Assembly: GCA_965223005.1 (NCBI GenBank)
Contig: CBDCVK010000005.1
Location: 1 to 64,000 of the forward strand
Length of the DNA: 64,000 bases
Direction: 5' to 3'
From: Terriglobia bacterium
GTDB lineage: Bacteria > Acidobacteriota > Terriglobia > JAJPHL01 > JAPKYU01
In this document: positions 15,990 to 24,704 of the stretch, piece after piece
How positions within the stretch are numbered: the stretch's first letter is position 1
How the letters are laid out: every line of letters begins with the position of its first letter
Notes under the pieces: model-generated
What the model saw: only the letters and a program-made list of their open reading frames with translations
What the model was told of the DNA's origin: nothing
The model's database searches: none
Made by a program: the position numbers and the translations under genes

Positions 15990-17597
15990 GTGTCCGTGAT
16001 CGCGAACAAGACGCATCCAACCGACGGCCCCATTGACGCGGCCGCTGCTTTCCGCCAAAACGGCGTCCTGCTGATCGGCGCCACCGGCTTTATGGGAAAG
16101 GCAACGGTGGCGCTATTGCTGGACCGCTATCCCGACTTGAAGAAACTGTACGTGCTGTGCCGGGCCAAGCCCGGCCGGTCCGGCGAACAGCGCTTTTATG
16201 GTGAAACAGCCCACTCGCCAGCTCTGACGCCCATCGTCGAAAAGCTGGGTTTGGATTTTGTGCGGCGCAAGATTCAGGTGCTCGAAGGCGACGTCAGCGA
16301 GCCCCTCTGCGGGCTTTCCCGAAACCAGATCGAAGAATTGAAGGGCGCGGTAGGTGTCGTCATCAACTCCTCCGGTCTGGTTGATTTTTCTCCACCTCTG
16401 GATGAGTCCCTGGCCACTAACCTGTACGGCACGAAGAACGCGATCCAGCTGTGCCGCACCTTGGGCGCACGCCTGGTGCACATCTCCACTTGCTATGTCG
16501 TGGGCGCCTACGACGGGATGGTGCCGGAGGACGGCACCATCCCGGGTTTTTATCCTGGACGCAACGGGCCGGCCGATGATCGCTTCGATTGCCTCAAAGA
16601 GATGAAATACTGCGAACAAGCAATTGAGTCGGCACACCGGAGCTACCAACACGACCCTCTCGAGCTCCGCAAGGAACTGGTGCGACTGGGAATGGAGCGG
16701 GCCCAGCACTGGGGTTGGATCAACACCTACACCTATATGAAAAGCCTTGGCGAACAGTTCCTGTCGCGAGAACGGGATCTGGCCTATACCATCGTCCGAC
16801 CGGCTATTGTGGGGACCGCGATTCGCTTCCCCTTCCCCGGCTGGACTGAGGGGTTCCGCACCACGGCGCCGCTGATCCTGATGGCGGCGGCGGGGGTGAA
16901 AAGCTGGCCGGTGCGAAAGGAGGATCCGCTGGAAATTGTGCCGGTGGATTTGGTCTCGGCAGGGATGCTGATCGCCAGCGCCGCCATTCTGTGCAACCGG
17001 CACCATCAGGTCTACCAGCTCGGGACCGCCGACGTGAACCCGGTCCTCTACCGTCGGCTGGTGAATTTTCTGGGCATGTATGCCCGCAAGATCAACCGCA
17101 GGAGAAGCGAGGGCAGCAAGATCCTGAACATGGCCCGGGCCTACATCGAGACTCGAGCGGTCACCGAACAAGAACTGAAGGTGCAGCGCGGCCTCAAGCG
17201 GAAGCTGCTCAGCCTGAGCAAGCGCGCCGTTTCCCGCCTATCGGGCCTTTCCCAGCGCCGCCGCCTGCCGGGCAAGGAGCGCCTGCAGGAATTAAACCGG
17301 CGCCTGCGAATGCTCTCGCGGGAGATTGCCTTGCGGGAACAAACTCTGGACCAGTACCTGCCCTTTATGGTGCGCTGCCGGTTCATCTTCGAATCGCGCA
17401 ATATCCGCGATACCTACGCCCAGCTAACCGAGGCGGATCGCCAGCGGTTGACCTGGGACCCGGAGAATATTGACTGGGCAGATTACTGGGTACACAAACA
17501 CACCAAAGGCATCGAGAAATGGATCCGGCCCGAGTTCGTGCGGAGCATGAAGGCGCCGCGCGCCAGCAGAGCCAAACAAACCGCTTCGGCCAGCTAG
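15990..17597 (+). CDS. Fatty acyl-CoA reductase (male-sterility/NAD_binding_4), homologous to the ElbD N-terminal domain
   Basis: 'GATGFMGK', 'HISTCYV', 'GWINTYTYMKSLGE', 'IVRPAIV...FPFPGW.EG', 'VPVDLV', 'IDWADYW'. Confidence 0.88.
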   Translation: MSVIANKTHPTDGPIDAAAAFRQNGVLLIGATGFMGKATVALLLDRYPDLKKLYVLCRAKPGRSGEQRFYGETAHSPALTPIVEKLGLDFVRRKIQVLEGDVSEPLCGLSRNQIEELKGAVGVVINSSGLVDFSPPLDESLATNLYGTKNAIQLCRTLGARLVHISTCYVVGAYDGMVPEDGTIPGFYPGRNGPADDRFDCLKEMKYCEQAIESAHRSYQHDPLELRKELVRLGMERAQHWGWINTYTYMKSLGEQFLSRERDLAYTIVRPAIVGTAIRFPFPGWTEGFRTTAPLILMAAAGVKSWPVRKEDPLEIVPVDLVSAGMLIASAAILCNRHHQVYQLGTADVNPVLYRRLVNFLGMYARKINRRRSEGSKILNMARAYIETRAVTEQELKVQRGLKRKLLSLSKRAVSRLSGLSQRRRLPGKERLQELNRRLRMLSREIALREQTLDQYLPFMVRCRFIFESRNIRDTYAQLTEADRQRLTWDPENIDWADYWVHKHTKGIEKWIRPEFVRSMKAPRASRAKQTASAS

Positions 17598-18316
17598 GAA
17601 CCGGTACGGTAAGTTCCCTCTCCAACCATCTGGAAGATACTTATCCGCTACCCCGGTCCTTGGCGGCTCTCACCCACTGGACCGTGGATCTGGCCGAAGA
17701 GCTCGTGTTCAGCCTGGCGTTCCAGGTGCGGGTGGAGGGCCGGGAGCAGATTCCCCAGAACAGCAACTTCCTGGTCGTCAGCAACCACGCGAGCCACCTC
17801 GATTACGGGTTGGTAGCCCACATTTTGGGCCGGCAAAGGAAAAAGTTGTACGTGCTGGCTGCCAGCGACTACTTTTTCAACAACAAGCTGAAACGCACCT
17901 ACTGCCAGAAGTGCACCAAGCTTCTGCCCATGGACCGGGAGATTCCGCTCCACCGGGCTCTGCCTTACGGCGATGCCTGCCTGGCTGCCGGAAACAACCT
18001 GTTGGTGTTCCCGGAAGGGACGCGGAGCCCGGATGGACGCATGGGCCGGTTCAAGCGTACAGCCGCTGCTCTCTGCCTGAGAAATCAGGTGGATGTGCTG
18101 CCCATGTATCTCCACGGCACCTACAAGGCGCTTCCCAAAGGCAAGACGCTGTTGCGATCGCGGCGACTGGGGGCTTGCGTTGGCACCGTCCTCAGCTATG
18201 AACAAATGGCGGCGGAGACCCTTGGGCGGGCAATGAAGTTCAACGCGGCCACTTTGCGAGTGACGGAACGAATCCAGCAGGCCGTGGAACAACTGCGCGA
18301 GGGCGGGCAGGCTTGA
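17519..18316 (+). CDS. PlsC-type acyltransferase, homologous to the ElbD C-terminal domain (start uncertain, may be ~17660-17684)
   Basis: 'NHASHLD', 'VFPEGTRS.DG.MG.FK', 'LPMYL.GT..ALPKG'. Confidence 0.85.
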   Translation: MDPARVRAEHEGAARQQSQTNRFGQLGTGTVSSLSNHLEDTYPLPRSLAALTHWTVDLAEELVFSLAFQVRVEGREQIPQNSNFLVVSNHASHLDYGLVAHILGRQRKKLYVLAASDYFFNNKLKRTYCQKCTKLLPMDREIPLHRALPYGDACLAAGNNLLVFPEGTRSPDGRMGRFKRTAAALCLRNQVDVLPMYLHGTYKALPKGKTLLRSRRLGACVGTVLSYEQMAAETLGRAMKFNAATLRVTERIQQAVEQLREGGQA

Positions 18317-19299
18317 GCAAGATCCTGATTACCGGTGCCACCGGTTTTCTGGGCACTCACCTGCTGCGCTGGATACACGAGTCTAGCTGCAGCGCGGGCT
18401 TGCGCCTGCTGACTCGCAGCGGGCGCTGGAGCGAAACCCAGACGGGCGCAGAGGTGGTGCAGGGAGACATCTGCGATCGCGCTACGGTTCGCAAGGCGAT
18501 GTGCGACGTCTGGCGCGTTTATCACCTGGCCGGGCTGGTCTCCCGCGAGCCGAGCCAAGCGCCCCTGCTCTACCGCACGCACGTGGAGGGGACGCGCAAC
18601 CTGTGCGAGGCCGCCTTGGAGTTTGGTGTCGAAAAGATGGTTCTGGTCTCCTCTTCCGGAACGATAGCCGTCAGCCGCTCGCCGGACGTCCACCGGGAGG
18701 ACGAGCCGTTTGCCAACGACGTGGTAGGACGCTGGCCCTACTATTTGAGCAAGATCTTCGAAGAGAAACTGGCCCTGTCGTATCACCGCGCACGGGGACT
18801 GCCTGTGGTGGTTGTCAATCCCAGCCTGCTGCTGGGGCCCGGCGACCAGAAGGGCCGTTCCATCCGGGAAGTGATCCTGTTCCTGCGCCAGAAGGTTTTC
18901 GCCGTGCCGCCAGGAGGGTTGAATTTCTTGGACGTGCGCGACGCGGCAGCGGCCCTGGGAGCAGCGATGGAGAAAGGAAATACCGGCGAACGGTATTTCC
19001 TTGGAGGACCCAACTGGACCTTTGCCGAGTTTTTCTACCGCCTGGAAATCCTTTCGGGAGTGAAGGCGCCCCGGACAAGAGTCTCAGCGAACCTCTCCAG
19101 CTGGGTAGCCCGCCTGAACCCCGTCGTGCGCGCGTTGGCCCCGAGGTACTTCCCGGTAACGCAGGCCGAAGTGGAGATGGCCTCGCATTTCTGGTACCTG
19201 GATAACAGCAAAGCGAGCCAGGCACTGGGGGCTACCTTCCGCGACCCGGCCGACACCTTGCGCGCCACCATTGAAGACGCCCGCCGGCTGCTGGCCTGA
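18313..19299 (+). CDS. NAD-dependent epimerase/dehydratase (ElbE-like)
   Basis: 'ITGATGFLG', 'YHLAG', 'YYLSK', 'VNPSLLLGPGD', 'DVRDAA'. Confidence 0.9.
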   Translation: MSKILITGATGFLGTHLLRWIHESSCSAGLRLLTRSGRWSETQTGAEVVQGDICDRATVRKAMCDVWRVYHLAGLVSREPSQAPLLYRTHVEGTRNLCEAALEFGVEKMVLVSSSGTIAVSRSPDVHREDEPFANDVVGRWPYYLSKIFEEKLALSYHRARGLPVVVVNPSLLLGPGDQKGRSIREVILFLRQKVFAVPPGGLNFLDVRDAAAALGAAMEKGNTGERYFLGGPNWTFAEFFYRLEILSGVKAPRTRVSANLSSWVARLNPVVRALAPRYFPVTQAEVEMASHFWYLDNSKASQALGATFRDPADTLRATIEDARRLLA

Positions 19300-19407: not shown

Positions 19408-21276
19408 ATGTCCACCACGGCGACCGTCACACGCGAAGCCGACTTTCAGCAACTTCAGCGGGACCGCATCATTAACGACCTGAGTATTCAGGTCGCCACC
19501 GTGAACGGTTCCGGCAGCCAGACGGCCAATATGATCCTGCTGCGCGCCATTTTCCAGATGGGCGTGCCCGTTTCCGGCAAGAACTTGTTCCCCTCCAATA
19601 TCGCTGGGCTTCCCACCTGGTACACCATCCGCGCCAACAAACATGGATACGTTGCACGCAAAAAGGAAATTGATTTCCTGGTGGCAATGAACCCGGAAAC
19701 AGCCAGGGAGGACGTTCAAGGCTTGGCGCCAGGCGCCGCCGTCGTCTACGACGAACCGCTGAACCTGAACCAGCTACGCGACGACTTGGTGTTTTACCCA
19801 GTCCCCTTTGGCAAGCTGGTGGCTACCTGCTGCCCCGACGCCAAGCTCCGCAGGCTGGTCCGGAACATGATCTACGACGGGGTGGTTGCGCGCCTGCTGG
19901 GCATTGACATAGACCAGGTCGAGAGGGCACTCCGCAAGCAGTTCAAGAAAAAGGCCAAGGCCGCCGAGCTCAACTGGAACGCCGCGAAGGTAGGCCACAG
20001 CTACGCCGAACAGAACCTTCCCAAGCGCGACCCCTACTGGGTTGAGTCAATGAACGCCACCCGGGGCAAGGTCATCATTGATGGGAACTCCGCGGCGGCG
20101 CTCGGCTGTATGTTTGCCGGCGTCACGGTAGCCACCTGGTACCCCATTACGCCTTCCTCGTCGCTGTGCGAGGCCCTGGCGCAGTACATGGAGCGCTACC
20201 GCACCGACCCGGAAACCGGCAAGGCCACCTTCGCCATCGTTCAGGCGGAAGATGAACTTGCCGCCATCGGCATGGTTCTGGGAGCCAGCTGGGCCGGGGC
20301 TCGCTCCATGACCTCCACTTCCGGTCCCGGAATCTCACTGATGTCGGAATTCGTCGGTCTGGGCTACTACGTGGAATTGCCGGCGGTGATCTTTAACATT
20401 CAGCGCGTCGGGCCTTCCACCGGCCTGCCCACCCGCACCATGCAAGGCGACATCCTGTCTACTGCGTTCCTCTCCCATGGCGACACCAAACACGTGATGC
20501 TGTTTCCGTGCTCGGTCGACGAAGTCTTTGCCATGGCCCAGGAGGCATTCAATCTGGCCGACGAGCTGCAGACGCCGGTGTTCATCATGAGTGATCTGGA
20601 CCTGGGGATGAACAATTGGATGTCGGACCCGTTTCCCTATCCCGCCAAGTCCCTGCGGCGGGGCAAGGTCCTCTCAGCGGAAGACTTGGACAGAGTGAAG
20701 CAATGGGGGCGCTACAAGGACGTGGATGGCGACGCCATACCGTACCGCACACTGCCCGGTACGCGTCATCCCCGCGCCGCCTGGTTTGCTCGAGGCAGCG
20801 GCCACAACGAGAATGCCGAGTACACCGAGCGCTCCGCCGACTATGAGGACAACATGGACCGGCTGGCCCGCAAGTTCGAAACCGCGCGCCAGATGCTGCC
20901 AGCTGCGGAGGTGGACGAGCATGGTGCGGAGGTGGGCATCATCGCCTTTGGCACTACCCACTGGGCCATCGTCGAAACACGCGACCAGCTTCGCGCTGAG
21001 CATGGCATGGAAACCGATTACTTGCGCCTGCGCGGCTACCCGTTTACCAGCACAGTCAAGGAGTTCATTCACCGCCATCGGCGCGTTTACGTGGTGGAAC
21101 AGAACCGCGACGGCCAGATGTACGACCTGCTCCGGGTTGACCTGGCTTTGGGCGACCTGGAGAAGCTGCGCAGCATTCGCCACTACAACGGCCTCCCGGT
21201 GGATGCCCGCAGCGTGACCGACGGCATCCTCGCCCAGGAAGGAATCCCCGCCGAGCAGAAAGCAGCGGCAAGATGA
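19408..21276 (+). CDS. korA: 2-oxoacid:ferredoxin oxidoreductase alpha subunit
   Basis: 'TVNGSGSQ', 'WYPITPSS', 'QAEDELAAIG', 'TSGPGISLM', 'QRVGPSTGLPT', 'VEQN..GQ'. Confidence 0.95.
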   Translation: MSTTATVTREADFQQLQRDRIINDLSIQVATVNGSGSQTANMILLRAIFQMGVPVSGKNLFPSNIAGLPTWYTIRANKHGYVARKKEIDFLVAMNPETAREDVQGLAPGAAVVYDEPLNLNQLRDDLVFYPVPFGKLVATCCPDAKLRRLVRNMIYDGVVARLLGIDIDQVERALRKQFKKKAKAAELNWNAAKVGHSYAEQNLPKRDPYWVESMNATRGKVIIDGNSAAALGCMFAGVTVATWYPITPSSSLCEALAQYMERYRTDPETGKATFAIVQAEDELAAIGMVLGASWAGARSMTSTSGPGISLMSEFVGLGYYVELPAVIFNIQRVGPSTGLPTRTMQGDILSTAFLSHGDTKHVMLFPCSVDEVFAMAQEAFNLADELQTPVFIMSDLDLGMNNWMSDPFPYPAKSLRRGKVLSAEDLDRVKQWGRYKDVDGDAIPYRTLPGTRHPRAAWFARGSGHNENAEYTERSADYEDNMDRLARKFETARQMLPAAEVDEHGAEVGIIAFGTTHWAIVETRDQLRAEHGMETDYLRLRGYPFTSTVKEFIHRHRRVYVVEQNRDGQMYDLLRVDLALGDLEKLRSIRHYNGLPVDARSVTDGILAQEGIPAEQKAAAR

Positions 21277-22304
21277 GCGCCACACCTCAGAAACTGAACC
21301 GCGTCGGGTTGGATCTGGCCGTCTACCGTGGCGGCAAGACTACACTGTGCGCCGGCTGCGGCCACAACGCCATCTCCGAGCGCATCATCGACGCCTTCTA
21401 CGATCTGGGGGTCGACCCCTACCAGGTAACCAAGTTCAGCGGGATCGGCTGCTCCAGCAAGACGCCCGCCTACTTTCTGCAAGGCTCGCACGGCTTCAAT
21501 AGCGTCCATGGCCGGATGCCTTCTGTGGCGACCGGGGCAGCGCTTGCCAATCGCAACCTGGTTCAAATCGGGGTCAGTGGCGACGGCGACACCGCCTCGA
21601 TCGGCATCGGACAGTTTGTCCACCTCATGCGCCGCAACCTGCCCATCATCTACGTCATCGAGAACAACGGCGTCTACGGGCTCACTAAAGGCCAGTTCTC
21701 GGCCACGGCCGACACGGGGTCGAAGCTGAAGAGCGGCGCGGTCAATGACCTGCCAACGATTGACTGCTGCGCCCTGGCGATTCAGTTAGGTGCCACTTTC
21801 GTGGGCCGTTCGTTCTCCGGCGACAAGAAGCAACTGCTGGCCCTGCTGAAGGCGGCCACCTCCCACCGCGGCGCCATCCTGCTGGACATCATTTCCCCGT
21901 GTGTCGCCTTCAACGACCACGAGGGTTCAACCAAGAGCTACTCCTACATGAAGCAGCACGAGGAGCCGCTGCACGAGATTGACTTCATTCCAACCTATAA
22001 AGAGATCGACGTGGATTATGAGCCCGGCCAAACGACGGAGGTCGAGATGCACGACGGCTCGCGAGTGGTGCTGCGGAAGCTCGGCCACGACTACGATCCC
22101 ACCAGCAAGTCTGGCGCGCTTGGGGCCCTACTAGAATCGCAGCAGACAGGGCACGTCCTCACGGGTTTGCTCTATCTGGAAACCCGCCAAAAGAATTTTC
22201 TGGATTTACTGAACATGGTGGACGCACCACTGGCCTCTCTGCCCGAAGACAGTGTCCGGCCAAACAAAGAGGTGCTGGACGAGATCATGGAAGAACTCCG
22301 CTAG
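21273..22304 (+). CDS. korB: 2-oxoacid:ferredoxin oxidoreductase beta subunit
   Basis: 'LCAGCGH', 'SGIGCS', 'HGR', TPP motif 'GDGD...NNGVYGLTKGQ', 'SPCV'. Confidence 0.95.
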   Translation: MSATPQKLNRVGLDLAVYRGGKTTLCAGCGHNAISERIIDAFYDLGVDPYQVTKFSGIGCSSKTPAYFLQGSHGFNSVHGRMPSVATGAALANRNLVQIGVSGDGDTASIGIGQFVHLMRRNLPIIYVIENNGVYGLTKGQFSATADTGSKLKSGAVNDLPTIDCCALAIQLGATFVGRSFSGDKKQLLALLKAATSHRGAILLDIISPCVAFNDHEGSTKSYSYMKQHEEPLHEIDFIPTYKEIDVDYEPGQTTEVEMHDGSRVVLRKLGHDYDPTSKSGALGALLESQQTGHVLTGLLYLETRQKNFLDLLNMVDAPLASLPEDSVRPNKEVLDEIMEELR

Positions 22305-22552
22305 CCCGACGCATTTCTTAACTCACTGTCAGGTCCGGTCTAGGCATAGCTGAACATCCTGGAAATCTCCTGTTCTAGCTCGTTCTGCTGCACGACGGTG
22401 CAGAGCGCAAGAGCCATGACTGGCGCGGGTTTCATCAGGTTGGACCGGGCGACGCTGCCGCTCCGGGCAGAGCTTGCCAAAGCCGTGATTGCATTGCTGC
22501 ACGAAGAAGCCTGCGGATTTCTTACGTGTTGAAAAGAAAGAGAATAGAATTC

Positions 22553-22581
22553 TTGACTCATTTTTGCGCGAAGAGTAAAAA
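22553..22581 (+). promoter_or_regulatory. Sigma70-like promoter of the putative large ncRNA
   Basis: TTGACT-N17-TAAAAA preceded by an A-rich tract (22531-22552); predicted start ~22588-22589 coincides with the first base of the terminal stem. Confidence 0.6.
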
Positions 22582-22588
22582 GACGCCC

Positions 22589-23331
22589 GGGTTCCGAGAG
22601 ATCTGGAAGGCAGGCTAAGCCTTCTGCTGAAGATTGCGGATCCCGAACAGCTGATCTCAGCCGCAAGGTTGGGATCAGAAGGACCTGAAGGGAACCTGTG
22701 GACGACTGGTTCGCAAGTCATTGCGGGCCGGCAGGAACCCAGGGGAAATCCCGGACGGCCAGTCAGAGCGCCCGCAAGGGTGACCCGACTGGAAAAACCC
22801 AGGGAGGAACTGGAAGCGCGGCGGCGTTAGCTGAAAGGCTCCGCCGTCGAAGAACTGAGCAGGAAGCGCAGGCTGGCTCGGGGCCGCAAGGCGCCGGGTT
22901 GGAACTGCAGAGATGGCTCGGTCACCGAACCTCGCTGCAAGGCGCGGGGCAGGGATAGCCAGGGAAACCACTGGGGGCCTAAATCCCGATCGAAAGGTCG
23001 GGAGGAGGGTCGGACCGGAGGACCCTTGGACGCCAACCCGGGGAGCTGAAGAGGTTTTTCGGGAAGGATCGACAGGAGAATATCCGGCTGTGAAAAGGCT
23101 GGAGTCGCAAGATTTCAGCTGAGTAAGAGTCGGGGATACCGTACGCGGCAACCCTGATTTCGGTGCCTTTCTGCCGCAAGGCAGGAAGGTCGAGCGTCGA
23201 CGACGAGCGGAATCGGGGAAGAGCGCACGCGGAGCTTCAGGCGCCTATCCTGGGAGAACCGGGAACGGACGTTCGGGGGATCGTAGTCGAGACGGAAGAG
23301 GAGAGCTTGCCCGAGAGGTCACTCGGGACCC
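22589..23331 (+). ncRNA. Large highly structured non-coding RNA (~743 nt), class unassigned
   Basis: Six nested 5'/3' long-range helices, at least 8 GCAA/GAAA-capped hairpins with many G-U pairs, purine-rich linkers, upstream promoter, no credible ORF. Confidence 0.82.
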
Positions 23332-23358
23332 AATTTCATTGAGCCACCCGCGACCGAC

Positions 23359-23384
23359 GAGCCGCGATCGTGAGGGAGCGGCTC
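23359..23384. terminator. GC hairpin directly after the stop of the convergent gene
   Basis: GAGCCGC-N12-GCGGCTC; no clear U-tract. Confidence 0.35.
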
Positions 23385-24704
23385 CTACTTCTTCTCCAGC
23401 GAAGCGCAGAGGATTTCTTTGTCGTTACGTGCGAAGATGTGCTTGTTCGCGTAAGCGGGATGCGACCAGTTCACCGCGCCAAGTTCGCGACGCCTGCTGA
23501 CGCGGGACGTCGGCTGAATCAGCTTCGTGCGACTGATTTCCCGATACCCTGCGGGCGACAACTTTGCAATGATCAACTCGCCGCGGTCGTTGTTAATGAA
23601 GTAGCGATCCCCGTGGCGGACGATAAACCCTGCCGCCCATCTGGCTCGTTCTTTCGTCACCGCAAGGGTTTCCCAAATGCGCTCACCCGTTTTGGCGTTC
23701 AAGCAACGTAATTGGCCATAGCTGCAGATGCCATAGATGTAATCTCCGGCAATGACGGGCGTCGAAATGAGCGCGTGCAAACCGTCGGTTTTGATCTCGC
23801 TGCCGCTCTTGCCCTTCCATCTCAGGCGGCCGCGAGGTTTGGCCGGATTGAGTTCCAGCATCATGCTGCCGTTGTAAAACGAGGAGACCAGCAGGTGCGC
23901 CCCGCTCCGTACCGGAGTTGCGACTGTGAGGCCGGAGCGAACCTTGAAGGGTTGCTCCCAGTAAATCTTGCCGGTCACCGGGTTCAGGGAGGTTAGCGCC
24001 TCAGGATGCCAGATCAGCAGTTGCCGCGTGCCGCCAGCCTGGATGAGGACCGGCGGGCAATACCCAGGCTCGCTGCTCGAAGGAAGGGACCGCCAGATTT
24101 CTTTCCCAGTCATTTTGTCGAACGCCACCACCTTGGCGTCCGGCTTGCCTCCCACCAGGGCGATGAGTCGCGCCCTGTCCACCACCGGCGCGCCGGTCAT
24201 TCCCCAGACCGGTATCTCGGTCCCGTAATCGTTCACAAAATCTTTCTTCCACAGGATCGCACCGTCCTTGACGCTGAGGCAGAGGAGAATGCCGGTGGTG
24301 CCCAGGGCGTACACGCGATCGCCGTCCACCGTCGGCGTGGTTCGCGGCCCGATCGCATACATTTCCATCAGGCCCGTATAGTCGGACTCCCACTCTCGCG
24401 TCCAAAGAATGCGGCCTGTTTCTTCGTCTAGACAGAGGAGTCGCTCGATCCCTTTGTTCGCTTCCGTAGGAGAGAAATCCAGGACAAACACCCGACCTCC
24501 CGCCACGGCCGGGCCGCTGTAGCCTCCCTTGATTGGGGTCCGCCACTTAATCTGCAGTCCCTTTTCAGAGAAGGTTTCCAGAACCCCGGTTTCCGTCCAC
24601 ACACCGAGTCGGCCCTTCCCCCGCCATTCCGGCCACTCCTCAGCCCGCACGGAAACCGCTACAAGGAGCAGCAAACTCCACCCCAGGAGGCATCGGCGAT
24701 CCAT
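23385..24704 (-). CDS. PQQ-like (BamB-like) beta-propeller repeat protein, secreted
   Basis: Signal peptide, 'EWPEWRG', repeated 'L.CL...TG.ILW' blades, 'WSHPAYAN..IFAR'. Confidence 0.88.
   Translation of the reverse strand: MDRRCLLGWSLLLLVAVSVRAEEWPEWRGKGRLGVWTETGVLETFSEKGLQIKWRTPIKGGYSGPAVAGGRVFVLDFSPTEANKGIERLLCLDEETGRILWTREWESDYTGLMEMYAIGPRTTPTVDGDRVYALGTTGILLCLSVKDGAILWKKDFVNDYGTEIPVWGMTGAPVVDRARLIALVGGKPDAKVVAFDKMTGKEIWRSLPSSSEPGYCPPVLIQAGGTRQLLIWHPEALTSLNPVTGKIYWEQPFKVRSGLTVATPVRSGAHLLVSSFYNGSMMLELNPAKPRGRLRWKGKSGSEIKTDGLHALISTPVIAGDYIYGICSYGQLRCLNAKTGERIWETLAVTKERARWAAGFIVRHGDRYFINNDRGELIIAKLSPAGYREISRTKLIQPTSRVSRRRELGAVNWSHPAYANKHIFARNDKEILCASLEKK

Follow-up and report, generated by a model that had tools for sequence, protein, structure and literature searches.

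We identified a gene for a large structured non-coding RNA of roughly 745 nucleotides in a Terriglobia bacterium (Acidobacteriota; GCA_965223005.1). The RNA matches no catalogued family, folds into an elaborate conserved shape and is present at high depth in environmental RNA libraries. The gene occupies positions 22589-23331 of the + strand in the window, the 64,000-nt stretch of contig CBDCVK010000005.1 that was analysed. Homologs, of about 745-820 nt, occur in 9 of 11 genomes of the organism's order and on 30 metagenome contigs. Although its function is untested, and no partner protein, ligand, target or activity is indicated, we consider it slightly more likely than not (probability about 0.55) that this is a stand-alone gene for a new class of large, very abundant RNA that acts in trans as a folded scaffold or particle. 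The parts of this reading are not equally secure. That it is a real, expressed and structured non-coding RNA gene is close to certain, that it belongs to no described family is very likely, and the scaffold or particle mode of action is only tentative.

Structure of the RNA and its conservation

The RNA in this genome is 743 nt long (G 37%, A 24%, C 25%, U 14%), and its ends are predicted from the promoter, the stalk and the U-tract. Its minimum free energy (MFE) was -377.1 kcal/mol against -299.2 +/- 8.4 for 20 dinucleotide shuffles (z -9.33, 0 of 20 as good), whereas the - strand gave a z of only -1.91 (1 of 20 as good). Two members that are only 58-59% identical to this copy fold to the same closed-stalk shape with z -7.25 and -6.52. 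The preliminary description had proposed six nested helices that pair the two ends, and each of these is fully paired in the MFE fold (10/10, 5/5, 8/8, 6/6, 8/8 and 8/8 positions), as is the helix 23152-62/23208-18 (11/11). Of the nine hairpins it listed, eight fold as described. The ninth, 22930-48, folds slightly differently in the MFE, but the consensus fold gives it a GCU-GCAA-GGC hairpin. The MFE has 7 GNRA tetraloops among 14 hairpin loops, against 0-2 in 12 mononucleotide shuffles.

The structure is conserved by compensatory change. In an alignment of 33 sequences and a model of 161 pairs, 96.4% of 5062 cells are paired, against 88.2% in shuffles. In the same model 65 pairs change on both sides, against 46.1 +/- 3.1 in shuffled and 16-22 in slid controls, and the covariation score is 0.365, against 0.223 shuffled and 0.057-0.101 slid. 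None of 500 shuffles reached any observed measure. The argument of the preliminary description that the G-U pairs work only on the + strand holds across the family: 876 paired cells (17.3%) are G-U and 57 (1.1%) are A-C, and the same pairs read on the - strand would therefore fall from 96.4% to 80.2% standard pairs.

The outer stalk (helix 1) pairs GGGUUCCGAGAGAUC at 22589-22603 with GGUCACUCGGGACCC at 23317-23331 over 14 bp. It does not covary: 8 pairs never vary, 6 vary on one side only (G-C/G-U) and 0 covary, with 99.4% of cells paired, and the sequence is invariant in lineages that are only 58-59% identical overall. However, the 30 metagenome copies were found with a 20-base motif, so that invariance at the positions of that motif is partly circular and relatives lacking the motif would have been missed. 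The inner stalk (helices 2-4 in window numbering, helices 2-5 in the table of the covariation analysis) pairs 22610-22646 with 23273-23310, with 4 of 5, 5 of 6 and 5 of 9 covarying pairs. Next to the stalk lies a GCAA-capped hairpin at 22651-22678, fully paired in the MFE, in which 7 of 10 pairs covary. It is followed by the 5' strand (22680-22689) of long-range helix 6, which pairs with 23236-23246; 4 of its 8 pairs covary and 98.8-100% of cells are paired (helices 8-9 of the covariation table). A central multi-branch domain at 22695-23076 is closed by helix 7 (22695-99 with 23072-76) and holds hairpins 22706-31, 22759-92, 22854-22922, 22934-43 and 22978-23008, with covariation in most. The arm at 22759-22792 is expandable: its closing helix covaries (4 of 6 pairs) and it carries one GCAA hairpin here, while other lineages add 1, 2 or 3 further GCAA-capped hairpin modules at this point (alignment columns 195-285). 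A GCAA-capped two-helix arm at 23083-23134, preceded by the conserved AGGAGAAKAUC, consists of helices 23 and 24 (3 of 8 and 5 of 8 pairs covarying). The 3' domain at 23139-23232 (helices 25-28) contains the conserved GAUAC and CAACCCUG segments and covaries. It is the core of our covariance model R1, which scores 141-195 bits on family members. No pseudoknot or tertiary contact could be supported, since only 4-bp runs appeared and these conflict with helices already supported.

Promoter, U-tract, expression and distribution

Each copy examined carries its own promoter. In this copy the -35 box TTGACT (22553-22558) and the -10 box TAAAAA (22576-22581) are separated by 17 nt, as the preliminary description had noted, and end 7 nt before G22589. 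A simple promoter scan did not list this promoter because its rule demands T at the last -10 position. Nevertheless, TTGACN and TAnAAn are present in 25 of 25 copies with a spacer of 17 nt (15 copies) or 18 nt (10 copies), and the distance to the first G of GGGUUCC is 7 nt in 21 of 25. An A/T-rich block (TTGAAAAGAAAGAGAATAGAATTC, 22529-22552) lies upstream of the -35 box and is possibly an UP-like element, a function that is inferred. A TGAAA block is found 14-22 nt upstream of TTGAC in 24 of 25 copies, and of 43 sigma-70-like matches in the whole genome this one has the highest upstream A+T (0.62, in a genome of 61.5% G+C). At the other end, the U-rich tail AAUUUCAUUG (23332-23341) is the presumed termination point. 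At least 6 T are present in the 10 nt after the stalk in 21 of 23 copies, although the tract of this copy is weak, as this copy and that labelled G001 have 5.

Metatranscriptome contigs from four studies cover the RNA and not its flanks. In run X7, one 883-nt contig at depth 2513 is identical to 22601-23304, with flanks at 0-4.7. In run X17 the depth is up to 1.4e5 inside the RNA, against 3.2 upstream, over the 285 nt after korB, and 3.7-14 within 240 nt downstream (56 in the last bin, 23576-23600). Run X20 gave 8-525 inside and 0 outside, and run X18 gave low depth (0.2-4.0), inside only. These are assembled contigs, which cannot show strand, start, end or true level, and the depths sum all organisms that match at 90% or more. 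The RNA-library contigs do not extend into 23312-23355 in any of the four runs, but gaps of this kind were not used as evidence on their own. Of the 20 public runs that hold the stretch, 8 are RNA libraries. In addition, 4 of 9 short metagenome-collection contigs join this RNA to rRNA or MISL RNA, which we interpret as chimeras between abundant transcripts. Contigs in two studies leave the genome sequence at 23303/23304 and one leaves it at 22601, with unlike sequence beyond. It is therefore possible that the mature ends lie inside the stalk, which would weaken the picture of sealed ends for this species, although contigs of other lineages do reach the last bases of the 3' stalk. These breakpoints and the scattered 5' limits of the chimeric contigs are not consistent with one cut site.

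The RNA does not code for protein. Two - strand ORFs overlap the region (22329-22721 and 22675-23151), but they have no Pfam hit and are not conserved. No conserved neighbouring gene was found. In this genome a TPP_enzyme_C (korB-like) gene ends at 22304 and a convergent PQQ_2/BamB-like beta-propeller gene occupies 23385-24704 (-), whereas neighbouring genes differ between genera. A recurrent pair of genes of 257 and ~680 aa downstream of arrays in one metagenome clade resembled the window's 247-aa protein plus M28 peptidase, but is unrelated to them (BLASTP E 1.9 and 0.34). The gene is single-copy in this genome but is frequently tandemly duplicated elsewhere. Tandem arrays occur in 3 genomes and on 12 of 30 contigs, with up to 3 copies in a row.

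As far as searched, the family is confined to one order of Terriglobia. All carriers are metagenome-assembled genomes, and the two genomes of the order without a strong hit are 71% and 77% complete, so absence from them is not shown. A strict 20-base motif scan of 185,579 species genomes returned 9 loci, of which 5 are the known Terriglobia copies and 4, from other phyla, have no homology beyond the motif. Model R1 over 151 genomes of the class gave 4 weak hits (21.6-25.6 bits) outside the order, the best of which lies in a DHDPS-family gene, and a 22.1-bit secondary hit next to the true copy in genome G002. Over 151 genomes of the phylum it gave one 30.9-bit hit, inside a 773-aa ORF. We regard all of these as chance.

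Comparison with known RNAs

The preliminary description inferred either a new class or a divergent member of OLE, GOLLD, ROOL, MISL or the self-splicing introns, and our results support the first alternative. A search with all 4227 Rfam 15 families at E<=1 gave no hit on 21500-24500 or inside the RNA copies of four divergent loci, and nothing over the whole window at gathering threshold. No paper describing this RNA was found (among those searched PMC12286853, PMC11109978, PMC2864571, PMC5737381, PMC12968392, PMC9723947, PMC3413148 and the Ribonanza preprint), although supplements, which may hold unnamed candidate motifs or the original MISL description, and subscription journals were outside this search.

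OLE RNA is likewise a chromosomal, stand-alone, intricately folded RNA of roughly 600 nt or more, of unknown biochemical function and exceptionally highly expressed (PMC9723947, PMC3413148). However, it is described in Gram-positive extremophiles and anaerobes and works with Oap proteins at the membrane (PMC12286853), whereas here the host is an acidobacterium, no conserved partner gene is adjacent and the gene is often tandemly duplicated. ROOL and GOLLD are large ornate RNAs of unknown function with many conserved helices that form RNA-only homo-oligomers, a precedent for what a particle of this size might do, but they are encoded in phages and prophages, often near tRNA islands (PMC12286853). 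The present RNA sits among metabolic or envelope genes, with only single tRNAs about 2.8 kb away in 2 of the 4 loci checked. MISL RNA (RF03079; 751 model positions, gathering score 274.6 bits) is of almost the same size and occurs in one of the same samples, as contig L063 joins the 3' end of this RNA to an internal point of a MISL transcript. The MISL model scores 210.9 bits on this half-length MISL, which shows that it works, but the alignment is confident only after the match to our RNA ends, and we read the contig as a chimera. The same model gave nothing at E<=1 on this RNA, on the four divergent loci or on the whole genome, and nothing in 151 genomes of the class. No description of MISL was found in the papers searched. 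The raiA motif RNA is much smaller and found in other phyla, and it is probably represented in Rfam, which gave no match here. Acido-1 and Acido-Lenti-1 (RF01686 and RF01687; PMC2864571) gave no hit, nor did group I or group II introns or other Rfam ribozymes. RNase P RNA, SRP RNA, tmRNA and 6S RNA are also abundant, trans-acting structured RNAs with their own promoters and paired 5'/3' ends. This RNA is not a replacement for the first three, as canonical RNase P RNA (299.7 bits, C2:412472-412863), SRP RNA (67.2 bits, C2:390877-390974) and one tmRNA (found by ARAGORN) are encoded elsewhere in the genome. The 6S model gave no hit on the region.

Possible modes of action

We infer that transcription starts at G22589 and ends just after C23331, so that the paired 5' and 3' ends form a long stalk that seals the molecule and shields it from exonucleases. 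The eight or so GNRA tetraloops and the A-rich, sequence-invariant junctions would pack the ~620-nt interior into a compact particle. The outer 14 bp are conserved in sequence and not merely in pairing, which suggests a handle read by a partner such as a protein, a processing enzyme or another copy of the RNA. The strong promoter and tandem gene copies would be explained if the dosage of this scaffold or particle matters.

It is also possible, but unlikely, that the RNA is an abundant decoy or regulator that titrates RNA polymerase, as 6S RNA does, or a global RNA-binding protein, with the invariant outer stalk or purine-rich junctions as binding sites. Its very high abundance, strong promoter, gene dosage and invariant outer stalk are compatible with this, and the Rfam 6S model finds nothing in this 96% complete genome, although that negative is weak because the model detects 6S in only 5 of 14 control genomes. 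However, a decoy does not need about 160 conserved pairs in about 30 helices, the shape is a multi-domain core and not a rod with a central bubble, and no candidate protein is linked by gene neighbourhood. About as doubtful is a large ribozyme, in which invariant junction segments (for example GGAACCUG, ACCGAACC, AGGAGAAGAUC, GAUAC, CAACCCUGAU and CGCCUAYCC) would form an active site acting on the RNA itself or in trans. The size and complexity are typical of large ribozymes, GNRA-rich architecture is present, and many unpaired positions are invariant across lineages that are 58-59% identical overall. The contig breakpoints at 22601 and 23303/4, and a contig (L083) in which a 3' end is joined to about nt 31 of another copy, could in principle reflect cleavage or ligation. 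However, the breakpoints carry unrelated sequence, 4 of 9 such contigs appear to be chimeras with rRNA or MISL, and their 5' positions are scattered (profile positions 11-38). Moreover, no Rfam ribozyme or intron family matches at E<=1, and there are no flanking exons, no intron-encoded protein and no mobile-element context.

An RNA of a mobile element, phage or defence system, comparable to ROOL and GOLLD, group II introns or transposon guide RNAs, is largely refuted. Copy number varies (1-3), the arrays are tandem, and in genome G005 the copies lie at contig ends. However, there was no match in 50,697 phage records or 72,556 plasmid records, the family motif had 0 hits in viral contigs, and the 8 hits of a 5'-stalk motif there show no further homology. 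Synteny is fixed across the genus between korAB and a BamB-like gene, and no transposase, reverse transcriptase, integrase or nuclease lies next to any copy examined. Upstream and downstream array copies are orthologous between contigs (97.7% against 96.1% within an array), which indicates an old duplication and not recent mobility. A cis-acting part of a neighbouring mRNA, either a long 3' UTR of korB, which ends 285 nt upstream on the same strand, or an antisense or leader element for the downstream gene, is also largely refuted by the separate promoter in 25 of 25 copies in unrelated contexts, the differing neighbours, the depth profile in X17 and the convergent orientation of that gene. 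A protein-coding or dual function of the - strand ORFs (130 and 158 aa) is the least likely, since no frame stays open across the 23 full-length copies, few indels are multiples of three (4/25, 0/9, 0/7, 1/9, 1/10), substitutions are compensatory in helices, and long spurious ORFs are expected opposite a G-rich, U-poor strand.

A more speculative reading, which we consider unlikely although it is not excluded, is that this RNA is the founding member of a class of chromosomally encoded, housekeeping-level RNA particles. The folded ~745-nt monomers would assemble through the invariant outer stalk and GNRA/receptor contacts into an RNA-only or RNA-rich higher-order complex, as ROOL, GOLLD and OLE do, but in the core genome of a free-living bacterium and not in a phage. 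The old, separately promoted A and B paralogs in tandem arrays could even supply two kinds of subunit. Alternatively, the invariant junctions could form the active site of a new large ribozyme.

Bacterial RNAs of this size and structural complexity are very rare, and each described class, such as ribosomal RNA, RNase P, the self-splicing introns, OLE, and ROOL and GOLLD with their RNA-only cages, has opened a new line of biology. What is new here is the RNA family, as the loose category of large bacterial RNAs of unknown function already exists. For a purely computational find the evidence is unusually clean, with about 65 covarying pairs, a conserved dedicated promoter and terminator, and depths in environmental RNA libraries that are 10^2 to 10^4 times those of adjacent genes. 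The RNA turns up in sponge, seawater and sediment metatranscriptomes and belongs to Acidobacteriota, an abundant but poorly cultured phylum for which very little RNA biology is known. At 745 nt it is of a size well suited to cryo-EM, so that the question of what large ornate RNAs do becomes directly testable on a chromosomal, non-phage example.

Fold and conservation of the RNA

The region 22589-23331 lies in the 1.08-kb gap between a korB-like gene (21273-22304, +; TPP_enzyme_C) and a convergent BamB/PQQ_2-like beta-propeller gene (23385-24704, -). When folded as RNA, the + strand gave -377.1 kcal/mol, against -299.2 +/- 8.4 for dinucleotide shuffles (z -9.33, 0 of 20 as good), while the - strand gave a z of only -1.91. 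The preliminary description had proposed six nested helices pairing the 5' and 3' ends, and all of these were fully paired in the MFE, as was the helix 23152-62/23208-18. Of the nine hairpins listed there, eight folded as described. The MFE contains 7 GNRA tetraloops, against 0-2 in 12 shuffles, and an eighth (GCAA, 22937-40) appears in the consensus fold. The two - strand ORFs that overlap the region have no Pfam hit.

The sequence is single-copy in its own genome. BLAST followed by an nhmmer profile search identified full-length copies in three further genomes of the genus (97, 97 and 89% identity), in another genus of the family (78%) and in three genomes of a second family (about 59%). A further genome of the first family, G005, has only fragments that run into contig ends (contigs C34 and C69, loci L006 and L015), which is what collapsed multi-copy repeats look like in short-read assemblies. 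In all, 9 of the 11 genomes of the order that were searched carry the RNA, and the two without a strong hit are 71% and 77% complete. A conserved 20-base junction motif found the same Terriglobia/Acidobacteriota MAGs among 185,579 species genomes, plus four chance hits. It also found 34 metagenome contigs, of which 30 are true homologs by profile. However, since these metagenome copies were selected with the motif, the invariance at those 20 positions is partly circular, and relatives without the motif would be missed. A covariance model of the 3' domain (R1) scores 141-195 bits on members. Beyond the order, it gave only chance-level hits in 151 class genomes and 151 phylum genomes, and the two hits that we examined in detail lie inside coding sequence.

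To assess whether the structure is held by selection, we aligned 33 sequences (23 non-redundant full-length copies and 10 long partial ones) and counted on this alignment a 161-pair, 32-helix model derived from the full-length rows. Of 5062 cells, 96.4% form standard pairs, against 88.2% in shuffles. Changes on both sides were observed in 65 pairs, against 46.1 +/- 3.1 in shuffles and 16-22 when partners were slid by 1-3 columns, and the covariation score was 0.365, against 0.223 in shuffles and 0.057-0.101 when slid. None of the observed measures was reached in 500 shuffles. Although the slid control is somewhat generous to the model because the model was derived from these same sequences, the margin is large. 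RNAalifold gave 51 of 171 pairs with double changes on 11 copies, and 61 of 140 on 33 sequences. Members only 58-59% identical to the window copy fold on their own to the same closed-stalk architecture (z -7.25 and -6.52). G-U pairs make up 17.3% of paired cells and A-C only 1.1%, so the + strand is the RNA. No frame stays open across copies, and few indels are multiples of three (4/25, 0/9, 0/7, 1/9, 1/10).

The closing stalk has two parts. The outer 14 bp (22589-22603 with 23317-23331) never covary, as 8 pairs are invariant and 6 differ only as G-C/G-U, whereas the inner stalk helices covary freely. The outer stalk is thus conserved as sequence and not merely as pairing. Inside the stalk lie a GCAA hairpin (22651-78), a long-range helix (22680-89 with 23236-46), a central multi-branch domain closed by 22695-99 with 23072-76, a two-helix GCAA arm (23083-23134) and a 3' domain (23139-23232), and these are joined by invariant purine-rich junction segments. 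One arm (22759-92 in the window copy) is expandable, since other lineages insert one, two or three further GCAA-capped hairpin modules at that point. No pseudoknot could be supported. Interestingly, the invariant internal GGAACCUG (22691-22698) is complementary to the invariant 5' GGGUUCC (22589-22595; 7 bp, one of them G-U), as is the 3' terminal GGGACCC. The 5' end could therefore pair first with the internal site during transcription and be displaced later, although this is read from the sequence only and the internal motif was part of the search pattern.

Transcription unit and genomic context

All 25 copies examined have TTGACN, a 17- or 18-nt spacer and TAnAAn, ending 7 nt (in 21 of 25) before the first G of the stalk. 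In addition, 24 of 25 have a TGAAA-containing A/T-rich block upstream. In the window, the A/T-rich block is at 22529-52, the TTGACN element at 22553-58 and the TAnAAn element at 22576-81. Among 43 sigma-70-like matches in the genome, this one has the most A/T-rich upstream region. At the other end, 21 of 23 copies have at least 6 T in the 10 nt after the stalk, while the window copy has 5, the U-tract being weak in this genus. Short C-rich tandem repeats follow the U-tract of many copies (L069:11915-11956, and downstream of copies in the loci L070, L064, L077 and L020, the last being copy G008a). On the RNA strand they include CCACCTG-type units of period 14/21, TTTCGGC heptamers and CCCATCTTT units. 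It is possible, though speculative, that such C-rich, G-poor tracts serve as Rho-loading sites.

Tandem arrays occur in 3 genomes and on 12 of 30 contigs, with about 1.11-1.16 kb start to start in the two genome arrays measured, and one contig has three copies in a row. Each copy in a tandem array has its own promoter. In one clade, upstream copies on different contigs are more alike (97.7%) than the two copies within an array (96.1%), so the duplication is old. On the other hand, the two copies in the genomes G004 and G008 are 99.7% and 96.5% identical, which suggests some homogenisation.

The gene order korAB, the RNA, the BamB-like gene, a 247-aa protein and an M28 peptidase holds only within the genus. 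In G004, which represents the other genus of the family, only the M28 peptidase is retained, directly downstream of the array, and a hemerythrin lies upstream. Elsewhere, the neighbours are CreD, an aspartyl protease and a PEP-CTERM protein; DUF507 and an aldehyde dehydrogenase; an AMP-binding enzyme; or a Cps4B-like protein and a Crp/Fnr regulator. No mobile-element, phage or defence gene is adjacent to the copies examined, and no copy was found in phage records, plasmid records or viral contigs. Upstream of korAB, a cluster at 15990-19299 (+) comprises a fatty-acyl reductase-like protein (NAD_binding_4 plus Sterile domains), an acyltransferase and an NAD-dependent epimerase/dehydratase, and may be a lipid-modification operon. 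Near-palindromic elements at L020:10040-10129, next to a tRNA, and at L019:7147-7224, in another divergent locus, match several plant and animal microRNA models on both strands, well below their gathering scores (29-41 bits). They are probably inverted repeats or terminators.

Presence in RNA libraries

Of 20 public runs that contain part of a 1101-nt query, 8 are RNA libraries. Four sponge metatranscriptomes contain 0.66-0.71 of its words, and the RNA makes up 0.67 of the query. We aligned the contigs of four RNA runs from four studies to 22300-23600. In the first run (X7), one 883-nt contig at depth 2513 is identical over 22601-23304, with flanks at 0-4.7. In the second (X17), 146 contigs at 90-100% identity reach a summed depth of up to 1.4e5 inside the RNA, against 3.2 upstream, 3.7-14 within 240 nt downstream and 56 in the last bin (23576-23600). 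The depth was 8-525 inside and 0 in the flanks in the third run (X20), and low inside (0.2-4.0) and 0 in the flanks in the fourth (X18). These are assembled contigs, which cannot show strand, exact ends or true level, and the depths include related organisms. However, the contrast with the flanks does rule out DNA carry-over as the source. Contigs from two studies leave the genome sequence at 23303/23304, and one leaves at 22601, with unrelated sequence beyond. These points are 27 nt inside the predicted 3' end and 12 nt inside the predicted 5' end, respectively.

Several short contigs from the metagenome collection join this RNA to bacterial LSU rRNA, to eukaryote-type LSU or SSU rRNA, or to MISL RNA (4 of 9 checked), which is typical of assembly chimeras between very abundant transcripts. 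In one of them (L063:694-1116), a truncated MISL RNA (RF03079, 210.9 bits, model positions 1-454 of 751) follows directly on the 3' end of this RNA. The alignment is confident only from about position 770, so the contig is a chimera of two abundant large RNAs from one sample. In another contig (L083:2-1174), the 3' end of one copy (…GGAACCC UU) is joined directly to about nt 31 of another copy, with no spacer, promoter or first 30 nt. This could be an assembly or template-switch artefact, or a head-to-tail RNA junction.

Relation to known RNAs and possible mode of action

No Rfam 15 family matched at E<=1 on this copy or on four divergent loci, and that library includes OLE, GOLLD, ROOL, MISL, Acido-1, Acido-Lenti-1, the introns, RNase P and 6S. 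The MISL model is shown to work by its hit on the MISL half in L063, yet it found nothing in this genome or in 151 class genomes. Canonical RNase P RNA, SRP RNA and tmRNA are present elsewhere in the genome. The 6S model (RF00013) found no 6S RNA in this 96% complete genome, although this is a weak negative since the model gave a hit in only 5 of 14 control genomes. No description of this RNA was found in the literature searched, which did not extend to supplements and subscription journals.

The evidence shows a stand-alone, strongly transcribed, structurally constrained non-coding RNA gene that belongs to no catalogued family. How it works is a matter of inference. A ribozyme or a protein-titrating decoy remains possible, while mobile-element, cis-regulatory and coding explanations are largely excluded. 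The paired ends, the many GNRA loops and invariant A-rich junctions, the very high level and the gene dosage all point away from an antisense or cis regulator, and toward a stable, compact, trans-acting particle, namely a scaffold for proteins or for copies of itself. The sequence-invariant outer stalk, although the reason for its invariance is unexplained, is the best candidate for a recognition handle.
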